Part shown: piece after piece, positions 8,910 to 39,157 of the stretch
Layout of the letters: every line of letters begins with the position of its first letter
Numbering within the stretch: the stretch's first letter is position 1
Assembly (NCBI GenBank): GCA_963932905.1
Contig: CAWVRN010000034.1
Coordinates: 1 to 41,218 of the forward strand
Reading direction: 5' to 3'
Length of the DNA: 41,218 nt
Source: an uncultured Bdellovibrio sp.
GTDB lineage: Bacteria > Bdellovibrionota > Bdellovibrionia > Bdellovibrionales > Bdellovibrionaceae
Position numbers and translations under genes: made by a program
The notes under the pieces: model-generated
Database searches by the model: none
Told to the model about the DNA's origin: nothing
The model's input: the letters and a program-made list of their open reading frames with translations, nothing else

Positions 8910-8910
8910 T

Positions 8911-15652: not shown

Positions 15653-15705
15653 AATGTATCTATGCGATTTCAATCTTTGTCTTGCTTAAGAATTCCTATG
15701 CCAAA

Positions 15706-17796: not shown

Positions 17797-17869
17797 ACCT
17801 ACCTCCAAGTGGTCCAACTAATATCCCATACCGTTTAGGTCGGGTGGTGTTTACATTTCTGCAAACGGA

Positions 17870-17897
17870 CTATCGGACGTTCGTTAAAATAACTTGA
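17870..17897 (-). promoter_or_regulatory. Sigma28-like promoter of the MCP gene
   Basis: Minus strand TCAAG-N15-TCCGATAG. Confidence 0.65.
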
Positions 17898-17920
17898 TAT
17901 CTAAATTAAAAATCTGGACT

Positions 17921-17947
17921 TATACTTTTTTATTAATCAACCGACAA
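17921..17947 (+). promoter_or_regulatory. Sigma28-like promoter of the porin gene
   Basis: TATA-N15-ACCGACAA. Confidence 0.55.
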
Positions 17948-17982
17948 GGAAGGAGAGCAATTTCTGGAAAAAGGAGAATTCC

Positions 17983-19491: not shown

Positions 19492-19576
19492 TGAAGCTGT
19501 ATAAGGAACCTGGTGATGAAGATTTCTGGGTTTTGTAAGCTATTAGAAACTATGGGAAAAGGCAGAAAGGCAAGCT

Positions 19577-19603
19577 TTAGTTAAATAGGCAATTGACCGA
19601 GAA
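19577..19603 (+). promoter_or_regulatory. Possible sigma28-like promoter of the kinase-cheA operon
   Basis: TTAG-N15-ACCGAGAA, weaker match. Confidence 0.4.
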
Positions 19604-19625
19604 GTAGAAGGCAGAGGTTGTACGT

Positions 19626-21626: not shown

Positions 21627-21645
21627 CCGTGAAGTTAAAGGATTT

Positions 21646-23439
21646 ATGGACGATTTTGAGAAGGAACTAAAAATTGGATTTCTAGCCGAAGCGAAACAGG
21701 CGACCGCAGATGCCGAGCAATGTTTTTTGGATTTAGAATCTAATCCCGACGATGCAGAGACAATGAATAAAATTTTTCGCTTGGCTCATAACCTAAAAGG
21801 GTCATCGAAAGCAGTAGGTTTTATCGAGTTGGGTGACTTTACCCACGAATTTGAATCTTTTATTTTAAAAGTAAAAAACGGCGAACTTAAAGCCAGTGCA
21901 AAAGTTATAAATATTCTTCTTCAGGGCAATGACCATATCATTAAAACTTTAGATTTATTAACTGAGAATCTGGACGCCCGGATTGAGCCGATTGGTTTGG
22001 TTCAAGAAATGAAAATGTATACCGAAGAACCAGAAGTTGAAGAACCAGTTGTTCAGGAACATGTCAGCAAAACAAAAGAAACGATTGAAAGTAAAGATCT
22101 TGAAAATCCACTTCCTGACTTGGATTTTGACCAGTCCCGGTTTCAAGAAACTCAACCAGAAACACTGGAAGTCGCCACTCAGGAAACCAAATTGCTCGAT
22201 ACGGTCCTTGACGTAGTGCCAGAAAAGAAAACTCGCGCGGCTTCAGCAGGGACAGACGAAACCTTACGTGTGTCACTTCAAAAAGTCGAATCACTGATCA
22301 ATTTTGTCGGCGAGATGGTCATATTGCAAAGTGGCTTGAAAGAACAAGCCCAGTTGTCGAACTCGACGGCACTAAAACGCATCGTTCAGCATTTGAATAA
22401 AGTCAGCAAAGAAATCCAAGAAACATCAATGAGTTTACGGATGGTTCCCATCAAACCCGTTTTTCAAAAAATGCAAAGAATCGTACGTGATACTTCGCTA
22501 TCCTTAAATAAGGATGTGTCTTTTCGTCTGATTGGCGAAGACACAGACATTGACAAAACCATTTTAGAAAAAATCAGTGATCCGTTAGTGCACTTAATAC
22601 GAAACTCTGTAGACCATGGAATCGAAAGTGCCGAAATCAGAAAAGAAAGAAAAAAATCTGAAACGGGATCGGTGGTGCTTAAAGCATTTCATCAAAGCGG
22701 CAAATTAGTAATTGAAGTCATCGATGATGGTGGTGGACTAGATCCCGAAAAACTCAGAAAGAAAGCTATCGAGAAAAAAATTATTTCTTCTGACGTTAAG
22801 TTAAGCGAAACAGAAACATTCAATTTAATTTTTGCACCGGGTTTTTCAACTAAAGAGTTAGTGACGGATGTTTCTGGTCGTGGTGTCGGTATGGATGTGG
22901 TGAAAACCAACATTCATGAATTAGGTGGAGAAGTTCAAATTGAATCAAAACTGCATTTAGGTTCAACTTTTCGAATTATACTGCCGTTAACTCTGGCGAT
23001 TGTTGACGCCATGATTTTAGCGTATGGAGACGAAAAATTTGTTGTTCCGGTAAACCAAGTTTTCGAAACTGTAAAACCAGAAAAAGGAAATCTAAGATCC
23101 ACTACTTTGGGTAATATATTACTCTTGCGTTCGGAAAATCTGCCTCTTTTTAAATTGGGCGATTTCTTATCAATAAAAAACTCGAGTTCAATTGAAAATA
23201 TGATTGCCATCGTGATTAGAGCTGGTGGAAAACCATTTGCGTTTCTAGTGGATGATATTCTGGGACAATCGCAAGTGGTAGTAAAACAATTAGGCCCAGA
23301 ACTACAAGGTATTGCAGGTATCAGTGGAAGCACGATATTGGGTGATGGAAAACCTGCATTGATTATTGAGGCACCGGATCTATTAAAAAGAACTCGTTCA
23401 GGTAACACTAAGAATTTTCAAGAAAGGATACAGAAATGA
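21646..23439 (+). CDS. cheA: Chemotaxis histidine kinase CheA
   Basis: Hpt FRLAHNLKG, dimerisation domain, HLIRNSVDHG, DVSGRGVGMDVV, C-terminal CheW domain; ATG 21646 after AAGGA. Confidence 0.96.
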   Translation: MDDFEKELKIGFLAEAKQATADAEQCFLDLESNPDDAETMNKIFRLAHNLKGSSKAVGFIELGDFTHEFESFILKVKNGELKASAKVINILLQGNDHIIKTLDLLTENLDARIEPIGLVQEMKMYTEEPEVEEPVVQEHVSKTKETIESKDLENPLPDLDFDQSRFQETQPETLEVATQETKLLDTVLDVVPEKKTRAASAGTDETLRVSLQKVESLINFVGEMVILQSGLKEQAQLSNSTALKRIVQHLNKVSKEIQETSMSLRMVPIKPVFQKMQRIVRDTSLSLNKDVSFRLIGEDTDIDKTILEKISDPLVHLIRNSVDHGIESAEIRKERKKSETGSVVLKAFHQSGKLVIEVIDDGGGLDPEKLRKKAIEKKIISSDVKLSETETFNLIFAPGFSTKELVTDVSGRGVGMDVVKTNIHELGGEVQIESKLHLGSTFRIILPLTLAIVDAMILAYGDEKFVVPVNQVFETVKPEKGNLRSTTLGNILLLRSENLPLFKLGDFLSIKNSSSIENMIAIVIRAGGKPFAFLVDDILGQSQVVVKQLGPELQGIAGISGSTILGDGKPALIIEAPDLLKRTRSGNTKNFQERIQK

Positions 23440-23918
23440 AACGTCAAAAAAGCATTCTTGTTTTGGATGATGAACAAGACATCGGCGAAATCATGTTAGA
23501 TATTCTAAATCCGGTGTACCAAGAAGTCGTATTTTGTTCCTCACCAATTCGGGCCAAAGAGCTGGTTGCTGAGAGATCTTTTTCTATGATTTTGACTGAC
23601 GTTCAAATGCCTGAACTGCCAGGCCCAGACTTTGTGAAATATGTTCGTTCGATGGGTAAAATTGACCCGATTATATTTGTGACAGGAAACGCGACGACCA
23701 GCGTTCTTTTGTCGGCATTGCGCTTAGGTGCATGCGATGTGGTTGAGAAACCATTTGAGCCACAAGATTTGCTGCAGACTGTCGAGCGCGCTTTTGAAAT
23801 AGAGAAACGACGATACCAACTTTATGAAACTATATTTACGAAAAAAGATAATGAAAAATCTGTTGGTGGACAAAAACGGATGATCGGGTTGTTGCAAGTT
23901 GTAAACGGAAAGAAATAA
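23436..23918 (+). CDS. Response regulator receiver protein with short C-terminal helix
   Basis: LVLDDE, TDVQMP, FVTG, EKPF. Confidence 0.92.
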   Translation: MKRQKSILVLDDEQDIGEIMLDILNPVYQEVVFCSSPIRAKELVAERSFSMILTDVQMPELPGPDFVKYVRSMGKIDPIIFVTGNATTSVLLSALRLGACDVVEKPFEPQDLLQTVERAFEIEKRRYQLYETIFTKKDNEKSVGGQKRMIGLLQVVNGKK

Positions 23919-23938
23919 ATATTTAAAGGAAGTAACGT

Positions 23939-24439
23939 ATGAGTCATTCAATCAGAAATCATAATTCGCATGCCGACAGCGGTAATCGGTATTTATGTTT
24001 TTCGTTGGGAAAAGAGAAATTTGCTATTCCACTTTTGCAGGTAAAAGAAGTAATTGCCAATACTGCGACCACGACCATTCCTCAGGCTCCGGCCTATTTT
24101 AAGGGAATTATGAATTTACGTGGACAGGTGATATCTGTGATCGACTTGCGTTCGAAACTGAAGATTGCCCATGCTGAAACAAGTTTAGAAACTACTATTG
24201 TAATTTTGGATATAAATGGTCTGTCGTTAGGGGTCATCGTTGACTCGGTCGACGCGGTATTAGCATATTCTGCAGACTCGATTAGCGATCCTCCAGATCA
24301 TGACAACAGTATGAAAGCTGACTATATTGTTGGTGTCGCTCGAGAAAAAGATCATTTAACTCTGATACTGGATTTAAAACGGGCGCTAAACACTGATGAT
24401 ATGAAGTCACTAAGACTGCAGCAAAAAGCTACGGCTTAG
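23939..24439 (+). CDS. cheW: Chemotaxis coupling protein CheW
   Basis: YLCFSLG, IPQAPAYFKGIMNLRGQVISVIDL, GVIVDSV. Confidence 0.96.
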   Translation: MSHSIRNHNSHADSGNRYLCFSLGKEKFAIPLLQVKEVIANTATTTIPQAPAYFKGIMNLRGQVISVIDLRSKLKIAHAETSLETTIVILDINGLSLGVIVDSVDAVLAYSADSISDPPDHDNSMKADYIVGVAREKDHLTLILDLKRALNTDDMKSLRLQQKATA

Positions 24440-24640
24440 CTATAAATTAACATGACCCATAACTGAATAGATGTTTGTGGTGATGATAACATCATTTGGT
24501 TCAAAAGCTTTCCATGAAAAATTAAACTTATCATCGGCTCATTCTCATTGACGTGCGGTCTTTCCAAAGTATTCGTGGATAGAGTAATTGATGTGAAGCC
24601 TTAAGGTCGTGAATGAATCGCGCCAAGTATAGGAGGCTAT

Positions 24641-25072
24641 ATGGATATGAAACATATTTTAGTCATCGATGATGAGCCTTATATGAGATCATTATTGATA
24701 GATTTGGTTTCTGATCTGAACGTCCAAATTGACGAAGCTGAAGACGGTGTTGCCGGTCTAGAGCGACTAAGAAGATGCCAATACCATTTAGTAGTAAGTG
24801 ATATTAAAATGCCGAGGATGGATGGAATCGAGTTGTTTGAAAACGCTTTGAAAGAAAATATATTAACACCTTTCATTTTTTTAACGGGCTACAGTGACGA
24901 TGAAAAGGTTTTAAAAGCTTTAAGGATGGGTGCGGCTGATTTTATTGCTAAACCATTTTTCCCAATAGAACTTTCTAATGTGATTGTAAGAATACTTGAA
25001 CTTGGACAGCGCAGAATTGAATTGTCTCGTGAACTGATGGTATCTAGTCCGCATCTGTTCAAAAAGAAGTAG
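24641..25072 (+). CDS. Response regulator receiver protein
   Basis: SD AGGAGG; LVIDDE, SDIKMP, FLTG, AKPF. Confidence 0.92.
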   Translation: MDMKHILVIDDEPYMRSLLIDLVSDLNVQIDEAEDGVAGLERLRRCQYHLVVSDIKMPRMDGIELFENALKENILTPFIFLTGYSDDEKVLKALRMGAADFIAKPFFPIELSNVIVRILELGQRRIELSRELMVSSPHLFKKK

Positions 25073-26800: not shown

Positions 26801-26833
26801 GGACAAAGTGTCCTACGTACTGACTTTTTGTCA
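26801..26833. promoter_or_regulatory. Paired GAC-N5-GTC palindromes, candidate enhancer (UAS)
   Basis: GGACAAAGTGTCC (26801) and TGACTTTTTGTCA (26821), 20 bp apart, upstream of a sigma54 promoter. Confidence 0.55.
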
Positions 26834-26883
26834 TAACCTCATATTTGAAACACAACCTAAGATGTTATGGGATCGACTTGATC

Positions 26884-26899
26884 TGGCATCTGCCGTGCT
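26884..26899 (+). promoter_or_regulatory. Sigma54 -24/-12 promoter of the second ABC operon
   Basis: TGGCAT-CTGCC-GTGCT (GG-N10-GC). Confidence 0.7.
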
Positions 26900-26913
26900 T
26901 ATACAGCCTATAA

Positions 26914-27687
26914 ATGAAGAAAAGATTTTGGGTCCTAGCTGTAGTTTCTATTTTGAGTATTCCGGTTTTAGTAGTTTATTTGTACAACGAAAAAAGTATT
27001 CAAATTGTCCATCCAAGTCGGGGGAACATCACCGAAGCGGTCTATGGTTTGGGGAAAGTAAAGTCGGACGATCGATTCGAAGTTATATCTGCTTTGATTT
27101 CCACAGTTACTAAGAGATACGTGAATGAAGGCGATATTGTTGAAAAAGGAATGCCTTTAATTGAATTAGACAACCACGCTGTATTCCGAGCCCCATTTAA
27201 AGGGACAGTGACGGCGGCGAATCGATTTGTCGGTGAGACCGCGATTCCCAATAGCCTACTTCTTCGGATCGAAAATTTACAAAAAAGATATATTGAACTT
27301 TCTTTAGAACAGCAGTCAACCCTTAGGGTTAAACCCGGACAAGTTGCTCGCGTTTCTTTTGAGTCACTGCGGGGAAATATATTAAGTGGAAAAGTAACTT
27401 CTGTTTTTCCTCGCGAAGATGAATTTATTGCGCGAATTTCCGTGGATGGCTTGGATCCATCGATCCTTCCCGGGATGAGTGCCGATATTACTATCGAGGT
27501 TGGTCGTATCGAAAATGCGTTGCTTATTCCGATTAATGCAATCTCCAATGGTTTTGTTACCGTTAGAAAAGGTAATCAGTGGAAAAAAATAAAACTAGAA
27601 TTAGGACACATTGACGGACTTAATGCGGAAGTAAAAGGTAACTCCATTAATGTAGATGATGAAATTCGTTTAAGTAAGGGGAAGTAA
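26914..27687 (+). CDS. Efflux periplasmic adaptor (MFP), short form; paralog of 8911
   Basis: ITEAVYGLG, VNEGDIVEKG / FRAPFKG, LPGMSADI. Confidence 0.9.
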   Translation: MKKRFWVLAVVSILSIPVLVVYLYNEKSIQIVHPSRGNITEAVYGLGKVKSDDRFEVISALISTVTKRYVNEGDIVEKGMPLIELDNHAVFRAPFKGTVTAANRFVGETAIPNSLLLRIENLQKRYIELSLEQQSTLRVKPGQVARVSFESLRGNILSGKVTSVFPREDEFIARISVDGLDPSILPGMSADITIEVGRIENALLIPINAISNGFVTVRKGNQWKKIKLELGHIDGLNAEVKGNSINVDDEIRLSKGK

Positions 27688-28932
27688 ATGTTTTTCTTAT
27701 CTTGGCGACAGTTAATCTCTAAAAAAAAACAAACATTTCTTATTTTAGTCGGTGTCAGCCTAGGCACAACTTTATATATAGCCATTGCGGGACTTCAGTT
27801 GGGAACGCGACACTATATGATGGAACATCTTTTAAATAATACATCCCATATTTTGGTTTCCGGTGCGGAGCGTATGATCGAAGAAGAAGAGGTTCGAAAC
27901 GAATTTTTTAGTGCAGAAGCCAATGTTCGATGGGTTCTGCCGCCGTTTGGGAAAAGGGAAGAAGTACGTCTTGAAAATTATCAAGGATGGTACCAGCGAT
28001 TTATGTCTGATACAGACGTACGTGATTTTTCGCCACGTTTGACAACCAATGCGATTCTATCCAACGGGCTTTTTACAGCGTCGGTAGGCTTAATCGGAAC
28101 TATTCCCGAACGCCAGGCACGTACCACGTCGGTGGAAAGTTACATGAAGGAAGGTAAATTTACAGACCTACAATCAGGGGCAAATAATATTATTATCGGT
28201 AGCAAAGTAGCCCAAAACCTGGGGGCGAGGGTGGGCCAAATCATAAACGTCAGCACCGGACGTAGTTCTATGCGGGGGTTTAAAGTCGTTGGCATATTAC
28301 ATTTTGGTAGCGATCAAATTGACAATTCCATAGCCTTTGCTGAACTAAGCCACGTTCAAGTATTGACTAAGAGTCCAGGACGAGTAAATGAAATTGCGGT
28401 TGCATTATTTGATATCGATAATGCGAATCAAAAAGCGGCAGAATGGAAAATGTTAGGAACAGATAAAGTTCAAGATTGGCAAGAGGCCAACAAAATGTTT
28501 TTAGAAATCATCAATGTCCAAGATTACACTCGATATTTTATTACTGTGACCATTTTAGTGGTGGCAGCGTTCGGCATATATAATGTTCTAACAATTATGA
28601 TTAATCAAAAACGAAAAGAAATAGCAATTTTACGTGCTATTGGATACGGTCCTCAACGTATTTTGCAGTTAGTGGTATATCAAGGCCTGCTGATGGGTTT
28701 TTCTGGTGGGGTATTAGGAGTTTTGTTAGGTTTTTTGTTATGCCTGGTCATTGCGAATATCAATTTAAATATTGAACTAGGAGGCAGTCACCATTTGCTG
28801 GTGGATTTTAGCCTACAAACCTATGTTGTTGGCTTTTTAGCGGCCAATGTAGCGGCTCTTTTCGCATCCTATTTTCCAGCGCATTTAGCTAGTAAACTAT
28901 CGCCGATGGATATTATCAGGAGTGATGGATGA
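27688..28932 (+). CDS. ABC transporter permease, FtsX/LolE-MacB type
   Basis: KRKEIAILRAIG, YFPAHLASKLSPMDIIR; collinear with the 9732 paralog. Confidence 0.93.
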   Translation: MFFLSWRQLISKKKQTFLILVGVSLGTTLYIAIAGLQLGTRHYMMEHLLNNTSHILVSGAERMIEEEEVRNEFFSAEANVRWVLPPFGKREEVRLENYQGWYQRFMSDTDVRDFSPRLTTNAILSNGLFTASVGLIGTIPERQARTTSVESYMKEGKFTDLQSGANNIIIGSKVAQNLGARVGQIINVSTGRSSMRGFKVVGILHFGSDQIDNSIAFAELSHVQVLTKSPGRVNEIAVALFDIDNANQKAAEWKMLGTDKVQDWQEANKMFLEIINVQDYTRYFITVTILVVAAFGIYNVLTIMINQKRKEIAILRAIGYGPQRILQLVVYQGLLMGFSGGVLGVLLGFLLCLVIANINLNIELGGSHHLLVDFSLQTYVVGFLAANVAALFASYFPAHLASKLSPMDIIRSDG

Positions 28933-29588
28933 TCCGATGTCAAAAACTTACGAAGGAATTCGGTTCGCCGCCACAGCGTATTTTACATTCGTTAGATATA
29001 GAAATTAAGGATGGTGAGTTTGTTTCCATTTCGGGCAAATCAGGAAGCGGAAAAAGCACACTGTTATATATTATCAGCACCCTTGATAGTCCAACCCAAG
29101 GTTCCGTTGAAATCGATGGTAAAAATGTATCCCAGATGAATTCGGATGACGTTCATTTATTTAGAAATAAAGAAGTGGGGTTTATATTTCAGTTCCACTA
29201 TCTACTTCCCGAATTGACGGCAATGGAAAATATTTTACTTCCTGCCCGTAACCTTAACTGCATGTCGGAAAAAAAAGATCGTGCGAATGAATTATTAGAT
29301 CAACTGGGATTGTCAGGTAGAGGAAATAGTTATCCGTCACAGATGTCGGGTGGAGAGCAGCAAAGAATTGCAATCGCACGCGCCTTAATTTTGAACCCAA
29401 AATACATTTTCGCTGACGAACCAACGGGAAATTTAGATACCGAGAACGCGGAAATAGTAATGAATCTGTTGAAACAAGTTAATCAGTCGGGAACAACCGT
29501 GTGTTTAGTAACCCACGATCCTGATTATGCGGCTATGGCGTCACGGGCAATCTATCTTCGTGATGGTCGACTGGCGTCTGCTACTTAA
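28929..29588 (+). CDS. ABC transporter ATP-binding protein
   Basis: GKSGSGKST, MSGGEQQR, FADEPTGNLD, VTHD. Confidence 0.95.
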   Translation: MIRCQKLTKEFGSPPQRILHSLDIEIKDGEFVSISGKSGSGKSTLLYIISTLDSPTQGSVEIDGKNVSQMNSDDVHLFRNKEVGFIFQFHYLLPELTAMENILLPARNLNCMSEKKDRANELLDQLGLSGRGNSYPSQMSGGEQQRIAIARALILNPKYIFADEPTGNLDTENAEIVMNLLKQVNQSGTTVCLVTHDPDYAAMASRAIYLRDGRLASAT

Positions 29589-29614
29589 CCAGAATTAAAA
29601 ATGTCGAGGTCTGC

Positions 29615-30205
29615 ATGTCTGAAAAAAATTGTCGAGTAGTATTAACGGGAGGCCCAGGCGGCGGAAAAACCACGGCCGCGGATTTATATCGCAGGGAAAT
29701 TGGTGATGAGGTGGTGATAGTTCCTGAAGCAGCCACGTTACTATATTCGGGGGGATTTCCTCGTGGTGGTGAAAATGGTGTTCGGCGCGCTACTCAACGT
29801 GCAATTTATCACGTACAACTAAATTTGGAAGATGCTCAATCGGCTCACTATCATAGCCGCGTTTTACTTTGCGACCGTGGTACGGTGGATGGGGCAGTGT
29901 ACTGGCCTGATACACCTGACCAGTTTTTTAAACATTTGGGAACGACTCTAGCTAAAGAACTTTCTCGTTATGATGCCGTTATTTTTTTTGAAACGGCAGC
30001 TGTCGGTGGGATTTCCATCGAGGGAGGTAATCCAACCAGGATTGAAACCATAGAACAGGCTCTTCAAATCGATTCGAAATTGAAAGCACTATGGTCCCAG
30101 CACCCCAACTTTGTATTCGTTCCCCATGAAAAGTCATTTATCAAAAAGGTCAATACAGGACTGCAGAAACTAGCCGAAATCGTAGCGCAGCAGCGACCAA
30201 AATAG
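29615..30205 (+). CDS. AAA_28 (NadR/Ttd14-like) P-loop NTPase/kinase
   Basis: VVLTGGPGGGKTT, VPEAAT, LCDRGTVDG, W..HP. Confidence 0.88.
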   Translation: MSEKNCRVVLTGGPGGGKTTAADLYRREIGDEVVIVPEAATLLYSGGFPRGGENGVRRATQRAIYHVQLNLEDAQSAHYHSRVLLCDRGTVDGAVYWPDTPDQFFKHLGTTLAKELSRYDAVIFFETAAVGGISIEGGNPTRIETIEQALQIDSKLKALWSQHPNFVFVPHEKSFIKKVNTGLQKLAEIVAQQRPK

Positions 30206-30213
30206 TCTGGCCT

Positions 30214-30765
30214 CTATAACTCTACCCGTGTGGATTCTGTAAGCGAGTTTAAAATTTGCCGGTAGGGAGTGTTGTCCATGATCTGGCGAATGATATTCGC
30301 CATTTTTTTTGCAGTAAAATTAAATTCTTTTTCCATTTTAAGAGAAATATATCGTGGATGTCGAATCCAAATATTTGTTTTAATTGCATCATCTGTTGGC
30401 GATAGCAGTTCTAAAACCCAATCGTATCGTTCCGTTTCTGTTTTTAACGTACTATGTATATTATCGAAAAAAGATTCCACACTTTCAGGCCAGTATCTAA
30501 ACACATCCAGTGTGCTGCCATCACAAATAACAATTTTGCCGTCAGATCCCAAACTGACAATCTCTTCTAACTCTTTTTGGAAAAAAAAGAGGGCGCGTTG
30601 ATAGTGTTTAAATGCATCCATATTTTTTGTTTCTGGAATTGACTCTTTTTTAATTATTTCAAATTTGTCAGGAACCAAAGTTACTTCTTCGGGATACTGA
30701 AATTGTAAAATGTGTACTAAAGTTGTTTTTCCTAAATTGGGTTGTCCGACAATGGCAAGTTTCAT
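30214..30765 (-). CDS. Divergent AAA_28-like P-loop protein
   Basis: IVGQPNLGKTT, ICDGSTLD..YWP, RYD.V, W..HP; collinear with 29615. Confidence 0.78.
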   Translation of the reverse strand: MKLAIVGQPNLGKTTLVHILQFQYPEEVTLVPDKFEIIKKESIPETKNMDAFKHYQRALFFFQKELEEIVSLGSDGKIVICDGSTLDVFRYWPESVESFFDNIHSTLKTETERYDWVLELLSPTDDAIKTNIWIRHPRYISLKMEKEFNFTAKKMANIIRQIMDNTPYRQILNSLTESTRVEL

Positions 30766-30809
30766 AAGGCCCTCGATGTTATAAAATATAATAAACTCTA
30801 TTTATAGAT

Positions 30810-30825
30810 AGCAACGGTGGTGCCA
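30810..30825 (-). promoter_or_regulatory. Sigma54 -24/-12 promoter
   Basis: Minus strand TGGCAC-CACCG-TTGCT, consensus match. Confidence 0.85.
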
Positions 30826-31143
30826 TCTGGTTGTACCAATCCAGTAGGTGGATATCGCCGCGCACATAAAAAAAATTTCGCAGTGACTGAAACTTGTGAC
30901 AATTTGGCACGCCAAGAGATTCCTATCTCGACATCTATTATATACGCTATTTAAGTTCAGCAGCGCTTAAAATTGTCACAACAGATACGTGATTTTTAAT
31001 GAATAGACGGTCAGATGAAAAATATATTAAGTAACTTTATGTATTAATCCACTTTTTTAAAAACAAAAAAAATCAATTTGCTTTTCATCTGATGAAATTT
31101 GTAAAACATTTTAACTTGAATCAATTTTGTGAGGATTGTTTAT

Positions 31144-32094
31144 ATGCGTACATCTAAATCAAAAAAAATGCAGGCTATCCTTAAAACTATGGATTCCATT
31201 GCTTGGTCTAATGCTAATGTTCTTATTACGGGTGAAACAGGAACTGGAAAGGAATATGTCGCAAAATATATTCATCAATCTGGTGACCGTGCTAAACAAA
31301 ATTTTGTATCGATCAACTGCGCTGCGATTCCTGAAGCACTTTTAGAGTCCGAGCTCTTTGGATATAAAAAAGGTGCATTTACTGGTGCGTATGCCGACCA
31401 AATAGGTTTAATAGAAAGAGCAAATGGCGGCACCGTTTTTTTGGATGAAATTGGTGATATGCCAATGTCTTTGCAGGCCAAGATCCTTAGGGTGTTGCAA
31501 GAAAGAAAAGTTCGACCAGTCGGTAGCAGCACAGAAAAACCTGTCGATTTCAAATTGATTTCTGCCACCCATAAAGATTTAAGAACTGAAATTGAAAATA
31601 GTCGCTTTCGCGAAGATTTATTTTATAGGCTTAATGTTATCCCTATCAACTTGCCTCCCCTTAGACAGCGGCGTGAGGATATTCCGAATCTAATAAACAA
31701 ATTTGCCTCACATTTTTCAGAAAAGTATGGTCTTCCTATGCCTAAGTTTACACCGCAAACTATAGAAGATCTTTGTCAGCGCCGATGGCCAGGAAATATC
31801 CGTGAGCTAGAGAATTTAGTTGAACAGGTTACTGTGTTGCAAAATAAAGAAAGCGATTTTGTGCAGGTTCATGATTTACCTAGAACTATCGACGAATGCG
31901 GGCACAAAGGTATTAAATATGTTTTTGAGAACCTAAACGAACTGCCGTCTTTGACAGAACTTTCAAATCAGTATGTGGATTTTGTTTTAAAACATGTGAG
32001 TTATCATCAAGGTAATGCAGCGGCAATTTTAGGAGTCAGCAGACGCACGATATATCGGAAAATCCACAAAGAAATTTTGGATTTTACTAGTTAA
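31144..32094 (+). CDS. Sigma54-dependent enhancer-binding protein (AAA+ and Fis HTH) without N-terminal sensor domain
   Basis: GETGTGKE, ESELFG..GAFTGA, FLDEIG, FREDLFYRL, WPGNIREL, HTH; ATG 31144 after GAGGA (GTG 31129 alternative). Confidence 0.95.
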   Translation: MRTSKSKKMQAILKTMDSIAWSNANVLITGETGTGKEYVAKYIHQSGDRAKQNFVSINCAAIPEALLESELFGYKKGAFTGAYADQIGLIERANGGTVFLDEIGDMPMSLQAKILRVLQERKVRPVGSSTEKPVDFKLISATHKDLRTEIENSRFREDLFYRLNVIPINLPPLRQRREDIPNLINKFASHFSEKYGLPMPKFTPQTIEDLCQRRWPGNIRELENLVEQVTVLQNKESDFVQVHDLPRTIDECGHKGIKYVFENLNELPSLTELSNQYVDFVLKHVSYHQGNAAAILGVSRRTIYRKIHKEILDFTS

Positions 32095-32122
32095 GTAGTT
32101 TGAACTAGCTGATAGTGAAATC

Positions 32123-32608
32123 CTACCGGCCTATAGCACTCGATAAAGACATTTTGGCATCTTGGTTTAAATTGGATAAAATCGCGAGCAACTTGCTTTT
32201 GGGAGTTTTTACGAAATCCTTTTTTATCCAATTGACCACGACCTTTTTAAGATTTGCATTCATTGAGGCACTGACTTTTCCCATAAATCCTGGTTCAGCC
32301 AGTATAGTCAAATTGAGGAAGTGATTTTGCCGTCTTTCTTCTTCCAAATACAATGCGATTTTTTTTGCGAACTGTTTGGCCGCGATTTCGTGGGGATCAC
32401 TGCGTTTGGGGTGAGAATAGCGGACGGTAGACATGCGACCAATTGTTTTTTGTTCATGTCCTGCTTGTTTGCGAACAAGCGATCGATTTCTTTCCCGGCC
32501 CAATGGATTCTGAAGTGTCACGATTTCTTTCAAAGAATTTTCGCTATCAACTTCTGAATAAATTTTTACTGTGTTTTGATTCATAATTGCAAACCAAGGT
32601 TTTTGCAT
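32123..32608 (-). CDS. Host attachment family protein (baeRF12-like)
   Basis: W.AIMNQ..VKIY, FAKKIA.YL, LTILAEPGFMG, IKKDFVK. Confidence 0.82.
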   Translation of the reverse strand: MQKPWFAIMNQNTVKIYSEVDSENSLKEIVTLQNPLGRERNRSLVRKQAGHEQKTIGRMSTVRYSHPKRSDPHEIAAKQFAKKIALYLEEERRQNHFLNLTILAEPGFMGKVSASMNANLKKVVVNWIKKDFVKTPKSKLLAILSNLNQDAKMSLSSAIGR

Positions 32609-32636
32609 ATTTACCTCTCTGTTCTATTTATGGTTC

Positions 32637-32652
32637 AGCAAAGTCTATTCCA
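32637..32652 (-). promoter_or_regulatory. Sigma54 -24/-12 promoter
   Basis: Minus strand TGGAAT-AGACT-TTGCT. Confidence 0.7.
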
Positions 32653-32693
32653 GTTCGATTGAAAGCACGCGTTCGTATTGTGTTTATAAGGTA

Positions 32694-32726
32694 AGAAAAG
32701 TTGTCTTGATAAATGACTTTTTGTCT
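32694..32726. promoter_or_regulatory. Paired GAC-N5-GTC-like sites, candidate shared enhancer
   Basis: AGAAAAGTTGTCT (32694) and TGACTTTTTGTCT (32714), 20 bp apart, midway between divergent sigma54 promoters. Confidence 0.5.
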
Positions 32727-32765
32727 CAAATATTTAATGGCGACAGTTTTGAATTAACTTAAAAT

Positions 32766-32781
32766 TGGTCCGGTTGATGCA
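32766..32781 (+). promoter_or_regulatory. Sigma54 -24/-12 promoter
   Basis: TGGTCC-GGTTG-ATGCA (GG-N10-GC). Confidence 0.6.
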
Positions 32782-32839
32782 TTGTCGACTGTGGAATGTC
32801 CGAATCAATTCGATTCGTGCCAATTAAATGGAGGAAAAA

Positions 32840-33499
32840 ATGAAAACAGATTCACAAATTCAAAATGACGTGATTCAAGAATTAAAATGGGATCCAAGTG
32901 TAACTCACGAACACATTGGTGTAACCGTCGATGATGGGATTGTTACATTGTCAGGAACAGTACCAACATATATTGAAAAATGGGCGGCCGAAAAAGCAGC
33001 GCAGAAGGTGGCCGGTGTCAAAGCAGTCGTTGAAAAAATCGAAGTTAAGCTGGCCAGCTCCACCGAACGTGATGATAAAGCGTTGGCTAAAGCAGTTGTA
33101 CAACAATTTAAATGGAACGTACAAGTGCCAGACCAATTAATCAAAACCAGTGTTGAAGATGGTTGGGTCACCCTAACAGGTGAAGTTGAATGGGATTTTC
33201 AACGAAATGCTGCCGCTAAGTGTATTCGCGCCTTAAGTGGAGTACGCGGTGTTTCTAATGATATTACTATCAAAGTTAAAAAAGTTCAGCCTGAAGTCAT
33301 CAAACAAAAAATCGAGGAAGCTCTGAGACGCGAAGTCGAACGGGAAGCACAAAAAATTAAAGTCGACGTGAATGGAAGTAAAGTCACTTTATCTGGAGAT
33401 GTTCATTCTTTCCGTGAAAAATGGGATGCTCGAGGTGCCGCATTAAGCGCACCTGGGGTAACGACTGTAGAAAATAATTTACAAATATCACCCTATTAG
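32840..33499 (+). CDS. Triple BON domain protein (OsmY-like)
   Basis: Three repeats GIVTLSGTV, GWVTLTGEV, KVTLSGDV with GV..V.N; SD GGAGGA before ATG 32840. Confidence 0.94.
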   Translation: MKTDSQIQNDVIQELKWDPSVTHEHIGVTVDDGIVTLSGTVPTYIEKWAAEKAAQKVAGVKAVVEKIEVKLASSTERDDKALAKAVVQQFKWNVQVPDQLIKTSVEDGWVTLTGEVEWDFQRNAAAKCIRALSGVRGVSNDITIKVKKVQPEVIKQKIEEALRREVEREAQKIKVDVNGSKVTLSGDVHSFREKWDARGAALSAPGVTTVENNLQISPY

Positions 33500-33538
33500 A
33501 CATCGCGAGTTCATTTCAAGCGGTGTAAGGAGACTTCT

Positions 33539-34174
33539 TTGATACTGGAAAACAGAAAACAAGCCGGACACTTGTTAAGTGAGCGGCTTGTTAAATATAA
33601 AGGTACAGATTCCTATATACTGGCGCTCCCTCGTGGTGGAGTGCCAGTCGCCGCGGAAATCGCATCAACTCTGGGCTTGCCTTTGAATATTCTAGCCGTT
33701 AGAAAAATTGGCGCGCCTTTTCAGCAAGAAATGGCAATTGGTGCCGTTTGTGAAAATCGCGATCCTATTTGGATGCATTCCATCTTGTCCAAGTTGGGGC
33801 TGCAACCCGACGATATGGGGAAGGCGGTCATTAAGGAAAGAAATAAAATACGACAGCAAATTGAAATTTTTCGTCATGGACGATCGTTAGAGAATCTATC
33901 TAATCGCAATGTCATATTAGTCGATGACGGACTGGCTACAGGTGCGACTCTATTCGCTGCTATCGATTACATAAAGGAAAGTGGTGCTAGAAAAGTAATT
34001 GTCGCAGTGCCCATAGCGGCTGAAGGTTCATTGGAAAAAATCAAACTGCGAGTAGATGATTTCGTTGCTCTTAAAATAGTAAAGAACTTGGGCTCCGTCG
34101 GTGAATGGTATCATGATTTTTCCCAAGTTTCGAATGCCGAAGTCGCGATGACTCTAGACAAGTTTACAATATAA
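33539..34174 (+). CDS. Phosphoribosyltransferase family protein
   Basis: LALPRGGVPVA, VRKIGAP, VILVDDGLATGAT, VGEWY.DF.QV. Confidence 0.93.
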   Translation: MILENRKQAGHLLSERLVKYKGTDSYILALPRGGVPVAAEIASTLGLPLNILAVRKIGAPFQQEMAIGAVCENRDPIWMHSILSKLGLQPDDMGKAVIKERNKIRQQIEIFRHGRSLENLSNRNVILVDDGLATGATLFAAIDYIKESGARKVIVAVPIAAEGSLEKIKLRVDDFVALKIVKNLGSVGEWYHDFSQVSNAEVAMTLDKFTI

Positions 34175-34176
34175 AT

Positions 34177-35166
34177 CTAGTTTATCAGTTGTGATGTTTC
34201 GACAGCGATCGATTTAGCAGGTAGGCCCCTTTCCCGCGGCCTATTTGCTTTGGGCTTATGAAAGATAAGCACAGGACATTTCGCTAGTAGTAGAATGTCT
34301 CTAACCGTTCCACCCAAAATAGCTTGAGATAATCGACCTTGATGGCTAGACAAAGCGATCAAATCAAACGATTTTTTCGAAGCTATTTCAAGAATGTCTT
34401 GGGCTAACGATTTTTTCTGTGCTTGAACTATTGAATCACATTTAACCCCTTGATCTGTTAAATTATCTGCTAAGTGAGTTAATTCTCTTTCATTGGCTTT
34501 TTCTGCTTCTTGCATCATTTTTTTCCACTCCAGAGCCAACGAGAAATCAGCGTAACTTGGCACAAACAAGCTTGGATTTTCAAGTTGATTAAACAATGTA
34601 ATTTTTGATTTTAATGGTTTAGTCATCGTGGCTAAGTTTTCTAAAGCCAGCTTTGAATCACGAGAAAAATTGGTTGGGAAAAGGATGGAGCTAATTTTCT
34701 TGGAAGGGCGAGCCGCATGATTAAATAAAAGCACGGGGACTCGTGATGTTGCCACCAATGTTTCGGCAAATCCGCCCAATCGAAATGGATTCCATGTTTT
34801 TTTTGCTCGTGTATTGGCGAAAATAACTGACGTATTTGATTTTTCGGCATAGTCGGATAGCACCGAGGCCATCTCGCGATTAGACAGACTTTTTGCGAAA
34901 ACAACATGCGCAGGAAGCAAATTTTTTACATTGGCTTTCTTTAAATAGGAATTTAAAGTTCTATAGGCATGGTCTTCAATTCCTTTGGTCCAAAGGTCCC
35001 TCAAATTTGTATAGTAGTCTGCTGTTGATTGAGAAAAAACCGCAACCGGCTGAATTTGACATTTCAGCCGCTTAGACCAAATTTTTAACTCCCTTATAAT
35101 ATTTTTTGCGTCTTGTGGATGTCGCATAGGATCTATCGCCCATATAATTTTATTTTTTGAATTCAT
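34177..35166 (-). CDS. Universal stress protein with two USP domains
   Basis: LGGFAETLV...PVL; ILFPTNFS; ILGGTVRDILLLAKCPVL. Confidence 0.92.
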   Translation of the reverse strand: MNSKNKIIWAIDPMRHPQDAKNIIRELKIWSKRLKCQIQPVAVFSQSTADYYTNLRDLWTKGIEDHAYRTLNSYLKKANVKNLLPAHVVFAKSLSNREMASVLSDYAEKSNTSVIFANTRAKKTWNPFRLGGFAETLVATSRVPVLLFNHAARPSKKISSILFPTNFSRDSKLALENLATMTKPLKSKITLFNQLENPSLFVPSYADFSLALEWKKMMQEAEKANERELTHLADNLTDQGVKCDSIVQAQKKSLAQDILEIASKKSFDLIALSSHQGRLSQAILGGTVRDILLLAKCPVLIFHKPKANRPRERGLPAKSIAVETSQLIN

Positions 35167-35220
35167 TCTATCTCCCGGTGATTTTGGTATTTTTTTAATA
35201 CCGATATGAAAATTATTAAT

Positions 35221-35236
35221 TGCAAGGCGGAAGCCA
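35221..35236 (-). promoter_or_regulatory. Sigma54 -24/-12 promoter of the USP gene
   Basis: Minus strand TGGCTT-CCGCC-TTGCA. Confidence 0.78.
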
Positions 35237-35274
35237 GCTTCATTGCCAAAAAAAATAAGTCCGCAGTTAACACA

Positions 35275-35308
35275 GGACTAAGTGGCTCATTTATTTGACA
35301 GAAAGTCT
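35275..35308. promoter_or_regulatory. Paired GAC-N5-GTC-like sites, candidate shared enhancer
   Basis: GGACTAAGTGGCT (35275) and TGACAGAAAGTCT (35296), 21 bp apart, between divergent sigma54 promoters. Confidence 0.5.
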
Positions 35309-35361
35309 CGATATCGGTTTTGTCGTTCGCTGTTATCTAAAACACGTGGAGGTTCCATCGA

Positions 35362-35377
35362 TGGCATTCACCTTGCT
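35362..35377 (+). promoter_or_regulatory. Sigma54 -24/-12 promoter
   Basis: TGGCAT-TCACC-TTGCT. Confidence 0.82.
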
Positions 35378-35393
35378 AAAGCATTCACCTTGC
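35364..35393 (+). repeat. 13-bp direct repeat overlapping the sigma54 promoter
   Basis: GCATTCACCTTGC at 35364 and 35381. Confidence 0.8.
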
Positions 35394-35440
35394 AAAAGGT
35401 TGCTTACGCGAAGAGAGGTACACATCGGAAAGGAAGGACA

Positions 35441-35728
35441 ATGTTAAAATTATTGATAGTAGGTCTGGTTAGTTATTTTGTTATTGAATCATTCGCATTG
35501 GATAAAGTTCCAGCGCAAGATGCGGATTCTAGATTGGCACATATCGAGATGCACAAAAAAATGATGGCGGCTCATCAACAAGCAGCCGAGTGTTTGAAAT
35601 CTGGCAAACAAGAAGAGGATTGCAGGGAAATTTTCCAAAAAATGTGTCTTGAAGCTAACGGACACAGAAAATGTGGACCTTGGATGATGAATCAGATGAA
35701 CAAAAAAGACGTAAAAAAGAAAAAGTAA
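35441..35728 (+). CDS. Small exported His/Met/Cys-rich protein
   Basis: SD AGGAAGG, signal peptide ending SFA, 4 Cys; the ORF-track start at 35282 lies upstream of the promoter. Confidence 0.8.
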   Translation: MLKLLIVGLVSYFVIESFALDKVPAQDADSRLAHIEMHKKMMAAHQQAAECLKSGKQEEDCREIFQKMCLEANGHRKCGPWMMNQMNKKDVKKKK

Positions 35729-35740
35729 ATTGGAGAAAAT

Positions 35741-36223
35741 ATGAAAGCAGAATGTCATTGGAATGGGAAAAAAAATTTTATTACTAATATTAATGGCTTC
35801 AAAGTACACATCGATGTGTCGCTCCCTCTGGGAATGGAAAAAATCCCGACCATCAAACAACTTGTACTGGCTTCATTTTGTGGGCGGGCAGGCATGTTTG
35901 TTATTAACATGCTAACACGAAGTCAGAACAGACCTTCTAAGTTTAGAATCGACGCTGATTCTAGAATTTCTGAATCCTATCCTTATGAATTAAAGGAAAT
36001 AAAATTGAAATATTTTATTGAGGGTGACTGCAGTCCTGACGTAGCTAACGAAGCTGTCGTTGTATCCCAAAATCGATACTGCGCCATCAGTGCCATGGTT
36101 TCTCAGGGTACCTCTATCGATTATGAAATTTGGTTAAATAACCGTCGAATCACAGGCGCAGAATATTTAGCACTTCCGTTTGCATCGCGGATGAATGACC
36201 AGGTAATGTACTATGAAGCCTAA
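35741..36223 (+). CDS. OsmC family protein
   Basis: SD GGAG; P..KQLVLASFCG, YP....I.L.Y, SQNRYCAISAM. Confidence 0.88.
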   Translation: MKAECHWNGKKNFITNINGFKVHIDVSLPLGMEKIPTIKQLVLASFCGRAGMFVINMLTRSQNRPSKFRIDADSRISESYPYELKEIKLKYFIEGDCSPDVANEAVVVSQNRYCAISAMVSQGTSIDYEIWLNNRRITGAEYLALPFASRMNDQVMYYEA

Positions 36224-36443
36224 TCATGGCCAAATTTGGCCATTAGAGCAGAAGGAAAGTATCGAATTTGAGGAACTAAGTGGCGATATAGCCACCCTTG
36301 GTATGAGGATGTTACTTAGAAGAGTCTTGTCAGTGGAAAAACAAAAACAGCGATCAGAATTAGAAATTGATTTTTCTGCACAATTGGAATCTGCCGTGAT
36401 TTATCGAATGCGTATGCAGAAAATGACTGGCCGTTTTGAATAA
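36213..36443 (+). CDS. Small hypothetical protein
   Basis: 76-aa ORF filling the gap in the operon, 11-nt overlap with OsmC. Confidence 0.55.
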   Translation: MKPNHGQIWPLEQKESIEFEELSGDIATLGMRMLLRRVLSVEKQKQRSELEIDFSAQLESAVIYRMRMQKMTGRFE

Positions 36444-36480
36444 TGAATTGAATAAAGAACCTGTTTGGGGTGGAGGCTGA

Positions 36481-38544
36481 TTGAGTAACTCGCATACTTT
36501 AGATACCGACTATGAATCGCTTAAACAAGTTCAAAATCATGAAAAATTTTGCAGTTGGACTTGGGATATCGCAAATGACAGCCGTCAATGGTCCGATGAA
36601 ATATACAAAATAGTAGGAGTTCAACCAAAGAGTATTGAACTCAAACCGGAATATATTTGGGAGTTTATCCATGTTGATGACAGGGAAAGAGTAAGGAATG
36701 CCGTTAACGACTCTCTTAAAGACGGAAAACCCTATAATATTGAATACCGTATTATTCGAAAAGATGGCGTTGAAAGAATTGTTCATGCCGTTGCGGATGT
36801 GTATTTCGACGATAAAAGCCATCCAGCCAAAATGGTAGGTACTCTGTACGATGTGACCGATAGTAAAAAAAACATCGATAAAATATTTGAATCTGAACAA
36901 AAATTTCGAGGTTTGCTGGAAACGGCTTATGACCCAATTATTATTGTGGATGAAAAAGGAAAAATTGAGTTTGCGAATAGGCAAACTAAAAACACATTAG
37001 GCTATAGTTCGGAGGAGCTGATGGGGCAGCCGGTTGAAGTTTTAGTTCCAGAATGGCTTCGGTTAAATCATCAAAATAAACGAGAAAACTATATGAAGAA
37101 TCCTTTGTCGCGACCCATGGGGCATAGTCTTAGTTTGGCAGCCAGGCGAAAAGACGGCAGTGAATTTCCTGTGGAAATTTCTTTATCGCCGTTTAAAACT
37201 AGGCGCGGAACAATTGTCACAGCGTTTATTCGTAATATGACCGATATTCGGCGTGCAGAAAATCAACAGAAGTTTTTGGCAGAGACTAGCCAGTTACTGA
37301 GTGAAACGATGGATTTGCAAGAGCGCATTCATCTTATTTCGGACCAGGCGGTACCGACGTTAGCAGATGTTTGTGCGGTGTACATTCATGATTCAGCAAA
37401 ACTGAATTTAAAGGCGGTGGCTCATAGCCCAAACCTGGATGCAGAGCATGTCCGAAATTTAGTACAAAATGGTTGTTTTTTTAAAGATGATAATGGATTG
37501 AGTTTCACCTCAATTGCTAAAACTGGTGTACCTAAACTGATCGATCATATTAATGATCAAGTGTTGAAAGAAGTTACTTCTAGCGATGAAAACTGTGAAC
37601 AGCAATTAAAAGGTCTGCATGTTCAGTCTTTGATTGCAGTGCCCATGCAGGCCAGAGGGCGAACGATTGGGGTCATTTGTTTTATTCGGTGTAAGCCGTT
37701 AAATTACACTGAAAAAGACTTGGGTTATTTAAAAATAGTGGCCGAACGAGCGGCATTTGCTTTGGACAATGCAAGGCTATATAAAGAAGCGCAAGATGCC
37801 ATACGCCTACGAGAAGATGTGTTAGCCGTTGTTTCCCATGATCTAAGAAATCCACTTGGAATTATTCATGGATTTAACGACCTTTTAGCCGAAAGCTTTC
37901 GAAATTCAAAAGATCAACAGAGGGAAGAAAACTTTACGGAAGCGATTGGTAGATCCCTTAGGCATATGGAGCGACTTATTGGCGATCTGTTGGATTTCGC
38001 AAAGATTGAATCGGGAACGTTCACTATCGAGGCAAAACCTTATCAGATTGGTAAATTGTTCTGGGAAAGTGCCGAGCTAGTAAAAAGACACGCAGATGAA
38101 AAAAAAATCCAAATTTTCCCCAAATTTTCTCCGTCCTTATCGGAAATAATGTGTGACTCTGATCGCTTAAAACAGGTTTTTATGAATCTACTTGGGAACG
38201 CGATTAAATTTTCTCCAGTTGGTGGTGTTATCAAAGTGGGTGCGAAAGAAACACCGGTTGGAATCGAATTTTCGGTAACAGACACGGGACCGGGAATACC
38301 TACAGAAAACCTACCGCATATTTTTGATCGTTATTGGCAAGCGAAAGAAACCGCTAAGCTGGGGACAGGTCTAGGGCTTTCTATTGCGAAGGGGATAGTA
38401 GAAAGTCACGGTGGCAAGATATGGGTAAAAAGCATGATGGGTGCAGGTACGACCTTCTATTTTACCATTCCCAGAAATAGAGCCCTTAAGGTCAAGGTAC
38501 CATACTCAAAAGAAATCAAGAACGTCGAACTGAGGTTACATTAA
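36481..38544 (+). CDS. PAS-PAS(heme, FixL-like)-GAF sensor histidine kinase
   Basis: SD GGAGG; LVPEWLRLNH...Y...RPMG...RKDGSEFPVEISLS; GAF ending ALDNARLY; SHDLRNPL; GTGLGL. Confidence 0.93.
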   Translation: MSNSHTLDTDYESLKQVQNHEKFCSWTWDIANDSRQWSDEIYKIVGVQPKSIELKPEYIWEFIHVDDRERVRNAVNDSLKDGKPYNIEYRIIRKDGVERIVHAVADVYFDDKSHPAKMVGTLYDVTDSKKNIDKIFESEQKFRGLLETAYDPIIIVDEKGKIEFANRQTKNTLGYSSEELMGQPVEVLVPEWLRLNHQNKRENYMKNPLSRPMGHSLSLAARRKDGSEFPVEISLSPFKTRRGTIVTAFIRNMTDIRRAENQQKFLAETSQLLSETMDLQERIHLISDQAVPTLADVCAVYIHDSAKLNLKAVAHSPNLDAEHVRNLVQNGCFFKDDNGLSFTSIAKTGVPKLIDHINDQVLKEVTSSDENCEQQLKGLHVQSLIAVPMQARGRTIGVICFIRCKPLNYTEKDLGYLKIVAERAAFALDNARLYKEAQDAIRLREDVLAVVSHDLRNPLGIIHGFNDLLAESFRNSKDQQREENFTEAIGRSLRHMERLIGDLLDFAKIESGTFTIEAKPYQIGKLFWESAELVKRHADEKKIQIFPKFSPSLSEIMCDSDRLKQVFMNLLGNAIKFSPVGGVIKVGAKETPVGIEFSVTDTGPGIPTENLPHIFDRYWQAKETAKLGTGLGLSIAKGIVESHGGKIWVKSMMGAGTTFYFTIPRNRALKVKVPYSKEIKNVELRLH

Positions 38545-38545
38545 G

Positions 38546-39157
38546 ATGGAGATTGCTATCGCATACTATTCCGATAACGGACAAATTAAAAGGATTGTAG
38601 AAAGTATTAAACAATACATCGTTTCCCTTGGGGTACATCAAAACAATATTCATGAAATTGATATTTGCGACGAATACGCTTTTAAAGATTTATCGCATAA
38701 AACAGATCATTTAATTATAGGGTGTCCTTTTTATTTTGGACGTATTCCAAAGAAAATGAAAGATTGGATAGAAAGGAACAAGTTACACCTGGCTGGAAAA
38801 GACGTTTCGGTGTTTAAGGTCAGTCTTACTGAGGATAGTTCCTTGAAAGAGGGAAAAAAAAATGATCTACAGAATTTTCTGTCAAAAAATTTAAGTGCCA
38901 CGCCAAAGTTGCAAGTTTCGTTTATCAGTGATCTTAGATTCGGCAGATATGGTAAATTTTTGAATTTTCTTTTGGATACCACGCGACGATCGGGTGGTTC
39001 AGTAAACGACCACTATACAGATTACGAAGCGGAGAACAGGAATAGGGTAAAAGAATTTGTAGAAGGAATATGGAAGCAACTTCATAGATCTCGTTTTGAG
39101 AAAACTAGAAGCTATGGTCCGACATTCGAGTTCCGTGAAGACTTTACTCCGAACTAA
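38546..39157 (+). CDS. Flavodoxin-domain protein, HemG-like
   Basis: IAYYSDNGQIKRI, DHLIIGCPFYFG, F.VSL, L....Y, DYE...V..F. Confidence 0.72.
   Translation: MEIAIAYYSDNGQIKRIVESIKQYIVSLGVHQNNIHEIDICDEYAFKDLSHKTDHLIIGCPFYFGRIPKKMKDWIERNKLHLAGKDVSVFKVSLTEDSSLKEGKKNDLQNFLSKNLSATPKLQVSFISDLRFGRYGKFLNFLLDTTRRSGGSVNDHYTDYEAENRNRVKEFVEGIWKQLHRSRFEKTRSYGPTFEFREDFTPN

Follow-up and report, generated by a model that had tools for sequence, protein, structure and literature searches.

Six sigma-54-type promoters around a receiver-less enhancer-binding protein in an uncultured Bdellovibrio, read as one of several loci of a low-oxygen/energy-stress regulon

Does a dense group of sigma-54 promoters that surrounds a gene for an enhancer-binding protein form a regulon of its own, or is it one part of a wider network? 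The question is raised by a contig of 41,218 nucleotides (the window; contig C34 of genome G000) from an uncultured Bdellovibrio sp., in which positions 26801..39157 (the block) hold six boxes of the sigma-54 type and, centrally, the gene of an activator that consists of AAA+ and helix-turn-helix (HTH) domains only. An earlier note, made from the sequence alone, described the block as a self-contained, locally wired stress or dormancy island that is switched as one unit by this orphan activator. The reading that we prefer, at somewhat better than even confidence, is that the block represents one of several loci of a sigma-54 low-oxygen/energy-stress regulon of an undescribed Bdellovibrionota type, served by signal-gated as well as receiver-less activators.

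Each of the six 16-mers picked out in the earlier note was found once in the window and in the orientation claimed, namely at 26884..26899 (box 1, + strand, predicted start ~26910), 30810..30825 (box 2, - strand, ~30799), 32637..32652 (box 3, - strand, ~32626), 32766..32781 (box 4, + strand, ~32792), 35221..35236 (box 5, - strand, ~35210) and 35362..35377 (box 6, + strand, ~35388). All six lie in non-coding DNA and point at a gene start 14-63 nt downstream. The genome-wide background rate, for which the note had called, was obtained by scoring a strict box (TGG-N9-TGCW with at least 9 of 12 consensus matches) in the non-coding 200 nt upstream of 2633 transcription-unit heads (4144 called genes), with gene starts taken from a simple caller written for the analysis. 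A strict box stands before six of the seven heads of the block, with the activator gene as the predicted exception, compared to 65 of the 2626 heads elsewhere in the genome (2.5%) and 0.3% of shuffled upstream regions. None of the thirteen heads in positions 1-26.7 kb has such a box and the four TGG-N9-TGCW matches in that part all fall within open reading frames (ORFs), as expected from the statement that its intergenic regions are free of boxes. Co-directional heads (n=1372) carry a forward box in 33 cases and a reverse box in four. With a correction for the choice of region, the block is the sole seven-head window with six boxes among 2300, and none of 2000 permutations reached six; it is also the densest box cluster of the genome. 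The boxes therefore differ clearly from background, and they look like real sigma-54 promoters, in a genome with one RpoN match (C2:328170) and 23 strong matches to activator-type proteins. A caveat applies to box 1, which would leave a leader of only about 4 nt before the ATG. Nearly leaderless sigma-54 transcripts are predicted at six of the 71 strict promoters, where the box ends 12-14 nt before the called start.

A second element accompanies the boxes. GAC-N5-GTC palindromes occur in all four intergenic regions of the block, and in three of these regions they form pairs with a spacing of 20-21 bp: GGACAAAGTGTCC (26801) and TGACTTTTTGTCA (26821), 20 bp apart at 26801..26833, precede box 1; sites at 32694 and 32714 (32694..32726) are common to the divergent boxes 3 and 4; and sites at 35275 and 35296 (35275..35308), 21 bp apart, are common to boxes 5 and 6. 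Five of the six promoters have this tandem motif in a fixed placement, in which the two sites begin about 53 and 74 bp ahead of the box or lie a further turn away from it, and the sixth, box 2, has one strong candidate site, TGACAATTTGGCA (30897..30909, single score 15.0); a 12-mer that overlaps this site (30894-30905) recurs inverted at 30970-30981. When the scoring matrix was rebuilt without each region in turn and applied to the 71 strict promoters, the five block promoters scored 19.5-24.8 (24.8 for the pair before box 1), and the ten best promoters were these five and five others on C2, C29 and C38. In a wider set of 191 candidate promoters, twelve scored at least 20; five are the block promoters on which the matrix was trained, and the remainder are seven of the 185 candidates outside the block (C15:28518, C29:53219, C2:344524, C38:9637, C38:16956, C38:17069 and C38:23974). 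None of 4944 box-less control positions, taken four per head and hence not independent, reached this score. The position and symmetry of the tandem motif suggest that it is the binding site of the activator, and a regulon shared by these promoters appears very likely to us. The presence of at least one copy of a common motif at all six boxes favours switching as one unit, so this part of the earlier proposal stands, while the seven promoters with the same motif on C2, C15, C29 and C38 indicate that the unit does not end with the block and that the block is not self-contained.

The closest paralogue of the block activator in G000 is a receiver-bearing protein (REC-AAA+-HTH, 45% identity) encoded at C38:12468-13871. 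The recognition helices of the two proteins are SRRTLYRK (C38 protein) and SRRTIYRK (block protein), and an SRRT helix was found in none of the other activators among the 23. Two hybrid kinases, a PAS kinase and a protein that consists of a receiver only are encoded next to the C38 activator, in a cluster with genes for four CBS proteins, BON, universal stress protein (USP), Hsp20, PfkB, beta-CASP, acetyl-CoA hydrolase and flavodoxin proteins; four of the seven motif promoters outside the block belong to this stress cluster. In another genome of the same genus (G003), a single island on C149 combines a C38-type activator and kinases with orthologues of the block MacAB genes, both AAA_28 genes and the BON, phosphoribosyltransferase (PRTase) and USP genes, at 66-90% identity. 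Boxes precede the MacA, AAA_28, BON and USP orthologues there, so that four boxes are kept at orthologous places. In an alignment of the window with G003, box 2 (AAA_28), box 4 (BON) and the proximal BON site each have their counterpart, this proximal site being identical, and boxes 1 and 5 also have counterparts before the orthologues in G006. The divergent arrangement around boxes 3 and 4 recurs in G016, and boxes also precede host-attachment genes in G138 and G016.

These comparisons do not bear out the view that the promoters are wired locally to the orphan activator, since a receiver-bearing paralogue has a near-identical helix and, in G003, the genes and their boxes are present although the orphan is missing from that place. 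We therefore regard it as improbable that the block is an island switched only by its own activator, a view to which the seven outside promoters are likewise opposed. What speaks for such an island is that the densest box cluster of G000 is centred on an intact activator and has a common motif, and that in five genomes of another genus (g9) all eight matches to the tandem-motif pattern described below lie within 9 kb of a receiver-less gene. The earlier picture in fact fits these five genomes better, in which no candidate other than the receiver-less protein was found.

The activator itself (31144..32094, + strand, 316 aa) is encoded centrally as had been noted, with an intact frame in which the Walker A/B, GAFTGA, arginine-finger and sensor II motifs of the AAA+ domain are all present and are followed by a Fis-type HTH; there is no sigma-54 box upstream. 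We rejected truncation or frameshift as the origin of its short form because no receiver-like open frame was found upstream of the gene and eight relatives are equally short. These eight receiver-less proteins, 313-337 aa in length and 51-66% identical, are its best matches beyond the window's own protein. The ATPase motifs, including the GAFTGA-type loop, the arginine finger and sensor II, are kept across nine aligned sequences of the clade (P0010 was left out as a likely fragment, with a different helix and on a 1.4-kb contig). A profile search over 390 genomes of the class recovered the clade in eight, one of which is G000 itself; it was found in none of the nine same-genus genomes. In a quick tree, built without L132, L133 and other rows in which Walker A was not parsed, the ten clade rows included form one group (support 99) nested within another (support 99) whose members nearly all bear receivers, which makes receiver loss the simplest reading. 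A metagenome scan with the clade alignment was not used, as it relied on generic patterns and gave 80 unrelated activators at 39-53% identity. We consider it likely that the short protein acts as an activator; activity without phosphorylation may be expected by analogy with known truncated and group IV proteins, and a protein without a receiver would be active whenever it is made and controlled by its amount.

A different role for the short protein is that of a damper, which occupies the sites or mixes into rings of the C38 protein and thereby lowers or reshapes activation. Its helix is common with that of the C38 protein and it could not receive the kinase signal, and interacting activator pairs are reportedly known (HrpR/HrpS). 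However, the ATPase motifs named above are kept across the nine aligned sequences, and among twelve activator matches in G066 whose helix was read, SRRT occurs only in the receiver-less protein and in none of the other eleven, which leaves a pure damper without an evident target there. We hold the damper to be unlikely.

That the orphan and the host-attachment gene form a silent passenger cassette, with all the work done by the C38 activator, seems to us very improbable. The 1.87 kb of the window that contain both genes (30827-32694) correspond to about 72 bp in G003, a difference that may be due either to gain in G000 or to loss in G003; that the clade was found in none of the same-genus genomes would also fit a passenger, as would the fact that no promoter was identified for the activator gene. 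Scans for sigma-70 promoters (27 vs 31.4) and for terminators (11 vs 11.1) both gave values at chance level. Against a passenger stand the intact frame and motifs of the activator, the tandem sites common to the host-attachment and BON promoters, whose geometry is that seen in G016, and the recurrence of the activator/host-attachment pair in G138 and G276. No significant hairpin was found between the two genes (z -1.75 and -1.36).

Several further observations concern the surroundings of the short activators. An AT-rich region before the block activator gene (window 30990-31100) contains the palindrome TTTCATCTGATGAAA and, about 75 bp upstream, a second CAGATGAAA, which may be the site of another regulator. 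TGTAAC, possibly an element of an ECF-type promoter, is present upstream of all five g9 receiver-less genes (L132-L136) and was not seen upstream of the activator gene of the window. In G079 and G088 the receiver-less gene lies about 70 bp downstream of a gene with its own motif-bearing promoter, an arrangement that makes a positive loop possible. A 316-aa receiver-less activator in G098 (L137:1456-2406), placed at the base of the C38 clade and beside an AAA_28 gene, is apparently the product of a second, separate receiver loss. Short activators with the helix DRKTLYR (frames of 327 and 360 aa in L326 of G066 and L333 of G063) recur in that group as well.

To follow the motif among genomes, a single-site pattern was discarded as too noisy (50 of 182 genomes) and replaced by a tandem-motif-plus-box pattern, which was found in 19 of the 182 family genomes. 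These are G000 itself, nine of the 22 with a C38-type activator, four of the 54 with related activators and all five with a receiver-less activator only, the last fraction being partly circular because the pattern was designed with knowledge of the receiver-less loci; it was found in none of the 100 genomes without such activators, which is the informative cell. Kin genomes are not independent. The C38-type activator was not found in G063, G064, G066, G079 and G088. At the level of loci, the tandem motif precedes a box in five of six receiver-less loci (score at least 16) and five of seven C38-type loci (at least 18), and in none of four loci of a related group with an INRRT helix and none of four C11-type loci. 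A stricter pattern gave 71 matches across GTDB, six of them in Bdellovibrionota and five of these six beside regulon-type genes; the other 65 were taken as chance, since they lie mostly in ORFs and have no neighbours of the regulon type beyond generic activator or kinase genes. All six loci of receiver-less relatives that were read are surrounded by stress genes (Hsp20, USP, CBS, PRTase fusions, beta-CASP, P-type ATPase and PfkB) in varying order. In the receiver-less islands L132 (11214-13796), L133 and L136, proteins of 860 aa join a PRTase to a region weakly similar to erythromycin esterase, and we take them to resemble Rv2030c of the DosR regulon.

G000 also holds a second cluster of six sigma-54 boxes (C11:80844-99767; L007 and L008) around an activator with the helix DRKTLYR. 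Several of its promoters, and of those near relatives of that activator (L199 and L200), carry a different palindrome of the form GGG-W-rich-CCC.

As to the signal, the C38 kinase has a PAS domain most similar to 3ewk (E 2e-53), to aerotaxis receptors and to a regulator of nitrogen fixation, and it also matches the NifL model; 3ewk is, we assume, MmoS, and PAS domains of this, the aerotaxis-receptor and the NifL type presumably bind FAD and sense redox. In the block kinase, the second PAS domain is most similar to 10jx, FixL and DosP, with 13 of its 14 PDB matches of the FixL or DosP type. An RxxH histidine, presumably the heme ligand, is aligned in it, and the FixL model gives a score of 191 against a cut-off of 850. 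In a related locus (L291), tandem sites and a box stand directly before a cbb3 oxidase operon, and cbb3 operons lie within the 20-kb loci of related activators L193, L196 and L197. An oxygen or redox signal is fairly probable on this evidence. The same regulon might instead respond to general energy or stationary-phase stress, which we rate as rather unlikely: USP, BON, OsmC, Hsp20 and CBS genes belong to stress responses in general, the cbb3 operon of G000 appears to lie outside the regulon, and a protoglobin was not found in this genome. A general signal would leave aside the flavin-type and heme-type PAS kinases across both loci, the placement of the cbb3 operons in the four loci just named, and a gene content that resembles, as far as the available part of PMC3721108 describes it, the lxa locus of Burkholderia cenocepacia.

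In the mechanism that we propose, falling respiration or oxygen would act through the C38 kinase relay, with its flavin-type PAS, to phosphorylate the C38 activator, the putative signal-gated master, and this protein would then open sigma-54 promoters on C38, C34, C15, C29 and C2. Both activators would bind the tandem sites, and the block protein would boost or prolong the output of the same promoters alongside the kinase-controlled C38 protein. The products, namely USP, BON, CBS, Hsp20, PfkB, OsmC, P-type ATPase and HemG-like proteins and, in one relative, the cbb3 oxidase, would serve survival at low oxygen.

Several points weigh against this reading. Box 2 has its single strong site only (pair score 8.1), some receiver-less relatives have the helix SRRTISR or SRRTLCR, and the strict pattern is present in as few as nine of the 22 genomes with a C38-type activator. 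Cofactor binding by both PAS domains is assumed from likeness. Finally, no sigma-54 promoter of this kind stands in front of the first gene of the cbb3 operon of G000, which lies behind a CRP/FNR-like gene, so respiration at low oxygen may be under separate control in this genome. This operon (C7:18440-26665) is preceded by the Cys-rich CRP/FNR-like gene and by an ATGAT-N4-GTCAT sequence; the likeness to FNR is presumed.

How does such a system compare with those already described? PspF and HrpR/HrpS are group IV proteins that consist of AAA+ and HTH domains only and are active without phosphorylation, PspF being held off by PspA and HrpS by HrpV. The block activator resembles them in the absence of an N-terminal input domain, whereas the block holds no recognisable partner gene of the PspA or HrpV kind, Pfam gave no psp or hrp families among its genes, and the match to the PspF model TIGR02974 (244 bits) stays below the cut-off of 443.55. 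Contrary to an assignment to PspF or HrpS, it groups in the quick tree with receiver-bearing Bdellovibrionota activators. The DosR regulon of mycobacteria, a comparable gene set for survival without oxygen, depends on a two-component regulator and is not known to use sigma-54. The lxa locus clusters genes for USP, alpha-crystallin, phospholipid-binding (BON-type), cation ATPase, metal-dependent RNase and transporter proteins for anoxic survival in a similar manner, but its motif is an Anr/Fnr-like TGA-N6-TCA and the available part of the source mentions no sigma-54 activator (PMC3721108).

The nearest parallel is NmpRSTU of Myxococcus xanthus. According to the part of PMC11841059 at hand, the gene of an NtrC-like sigma-54 activator lies there next to a CBS gene and together with genes for several kinases and receiver proteins, and its multi-locus regulon, for which hypoxic induction was demonstrated, includes CBS, USP, P-type ATPase and cbb3 oxidase genes; NmpR sites (GCGCA-N5-TGCGC) are 14-15 nt apart, and the sensor is the protoglobin kinase NmpU. 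The likeness in gene arrangement concerns C38:7970-13871 and its neighbours rather than the window: an NtrC-like regulator, a sensor kinase, a receiver-only protein, a REC-HisKA-HATPase hybrid and CBS genes are encoded there. The two systems also resemble each other in paired palindromes upstream of promoters and in putative targets at several loci, among them CBS, USP and P-type ATPase genes and, in a relative of G000, cbb3 genes, with hypoxic induction only surmised for G000. The motif of G000, in contrast, is GAC-N5-GTC at 20-22 bp from start to start. No PF11563 (protoglobin) match was found in G000, which is 98.6% complete, and the neighbouring C38 kinase has a flavin-type PAS instead. 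No receiver-less second activator is described for Nmp in that part of PMC11841059. As sensor and motif differ, we do not class the G000 system as a member of NmpRSTU and regard the likeness as one of function. Most Desulfovibrio activators govern between one and four operons, and cases of paralogues with a common motif have been noted (PMC4641369, in part). The promoter map of B. bacteriovorus treats FliA only, as far as the available part of PMC3627812 extends.

The genes of the block, identified by Pfam matches, are of the stress or dormancy type that had been proposed. Box 1 precedes a MacAB-type transporter with an HlyD adaptor, a MacB/FtsX permease and an ABC ATPase (26914..29588, + strand; 68-81% orthologues in G003), followed by an AAA_28 P-loop protein (29615..30205, + strand), and box 2 precedes a second AAA_28 protein (30214..30765, - strand). 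Box 3 stands before the gene of a Host_attach/baeRF12 protein (32123..32608, - strand), convergent with the activator gene as it is in G138 and G276, and box 4 a three-BON-domain protein (32840-33499, + strand) and a PRTase-fold protein (33539-34174, + strand). A USP gene (34177..35166, - strand) lies behind box 5. Behind box 6 are, all on the + strand, a 95-aa protein without a Pfam match (start at 35441), an OsmC-like protein (35741-36223), a 76-aa ORF (36213-36443), a PAS-PAS-GAF histidine kinase whose second PAS, most like the heme-PAS of FixL/DosP, is a candidate for heme binding (36481..38544), and a flavodoxin-fold, HemG-like protein (38546..39157; the HemG match is below the curated cut-off). 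The 76-aa ORF fills a gap of 258 nt before the kinase, so 35441-39157 can be one unit.

Directly after box 6, GCATTCACCTTGC is duplicated within 35362-35395, the second copy being without GG, and TGGAATCTGCCGTGAT (36385-36400), inside the small ORF before the kinase, is a near copy of box 1 without GC. The MacAB operon of the block has no outer-membrane factor of its own, and a second MacAB operon with such a factor, 30-51% identical, is found at 7620-11632 of the window. Further on, positions 11629-25072 are densely filled with genes for chemotaxis and two-component signalling (hybrid kinase, methyl-accepting chemotaxis protein, CheA, CheW and receivers) and have no sigma-54 boxes. A role of the host-attachment protein as a Balon-like hibernation factor was considered as a possibility; the protein had no PDB sequence match and is unmentioned in the available part of PMC10901736.

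In the literature covered, which held few subscription papers and no supplements, we found no description of this regulon or of the receiver-less clade, nor of the way in which predators of the Bdellovibrio kind deal with low oxygen. In its design the system has a precedent, because with NmpRSTU a related bacterium already provides a hypoxia regulon that depends on sigma-54. What the present loci offer is a concrete, testable regulon with a motif, predicted starts, two candidate activators and two candidate redox sensors, and what would be a natural case of an enhancer protein in which the input domain is lost and the target sites are kept. More tentatively, as an idea that we hold at less than even confidence, predators of the Bdellovibrionota may run low-oxygen dormancy through sigma-54 and a GAC-N5-GTC tandem enhancer, and a mobile receiver-less clade might take over this programme or lock it on without a kinase, as the sole driver of a self-contained island in some strains, perhaps with a positive loop in G079 and G088, and as a co-activator in G000.

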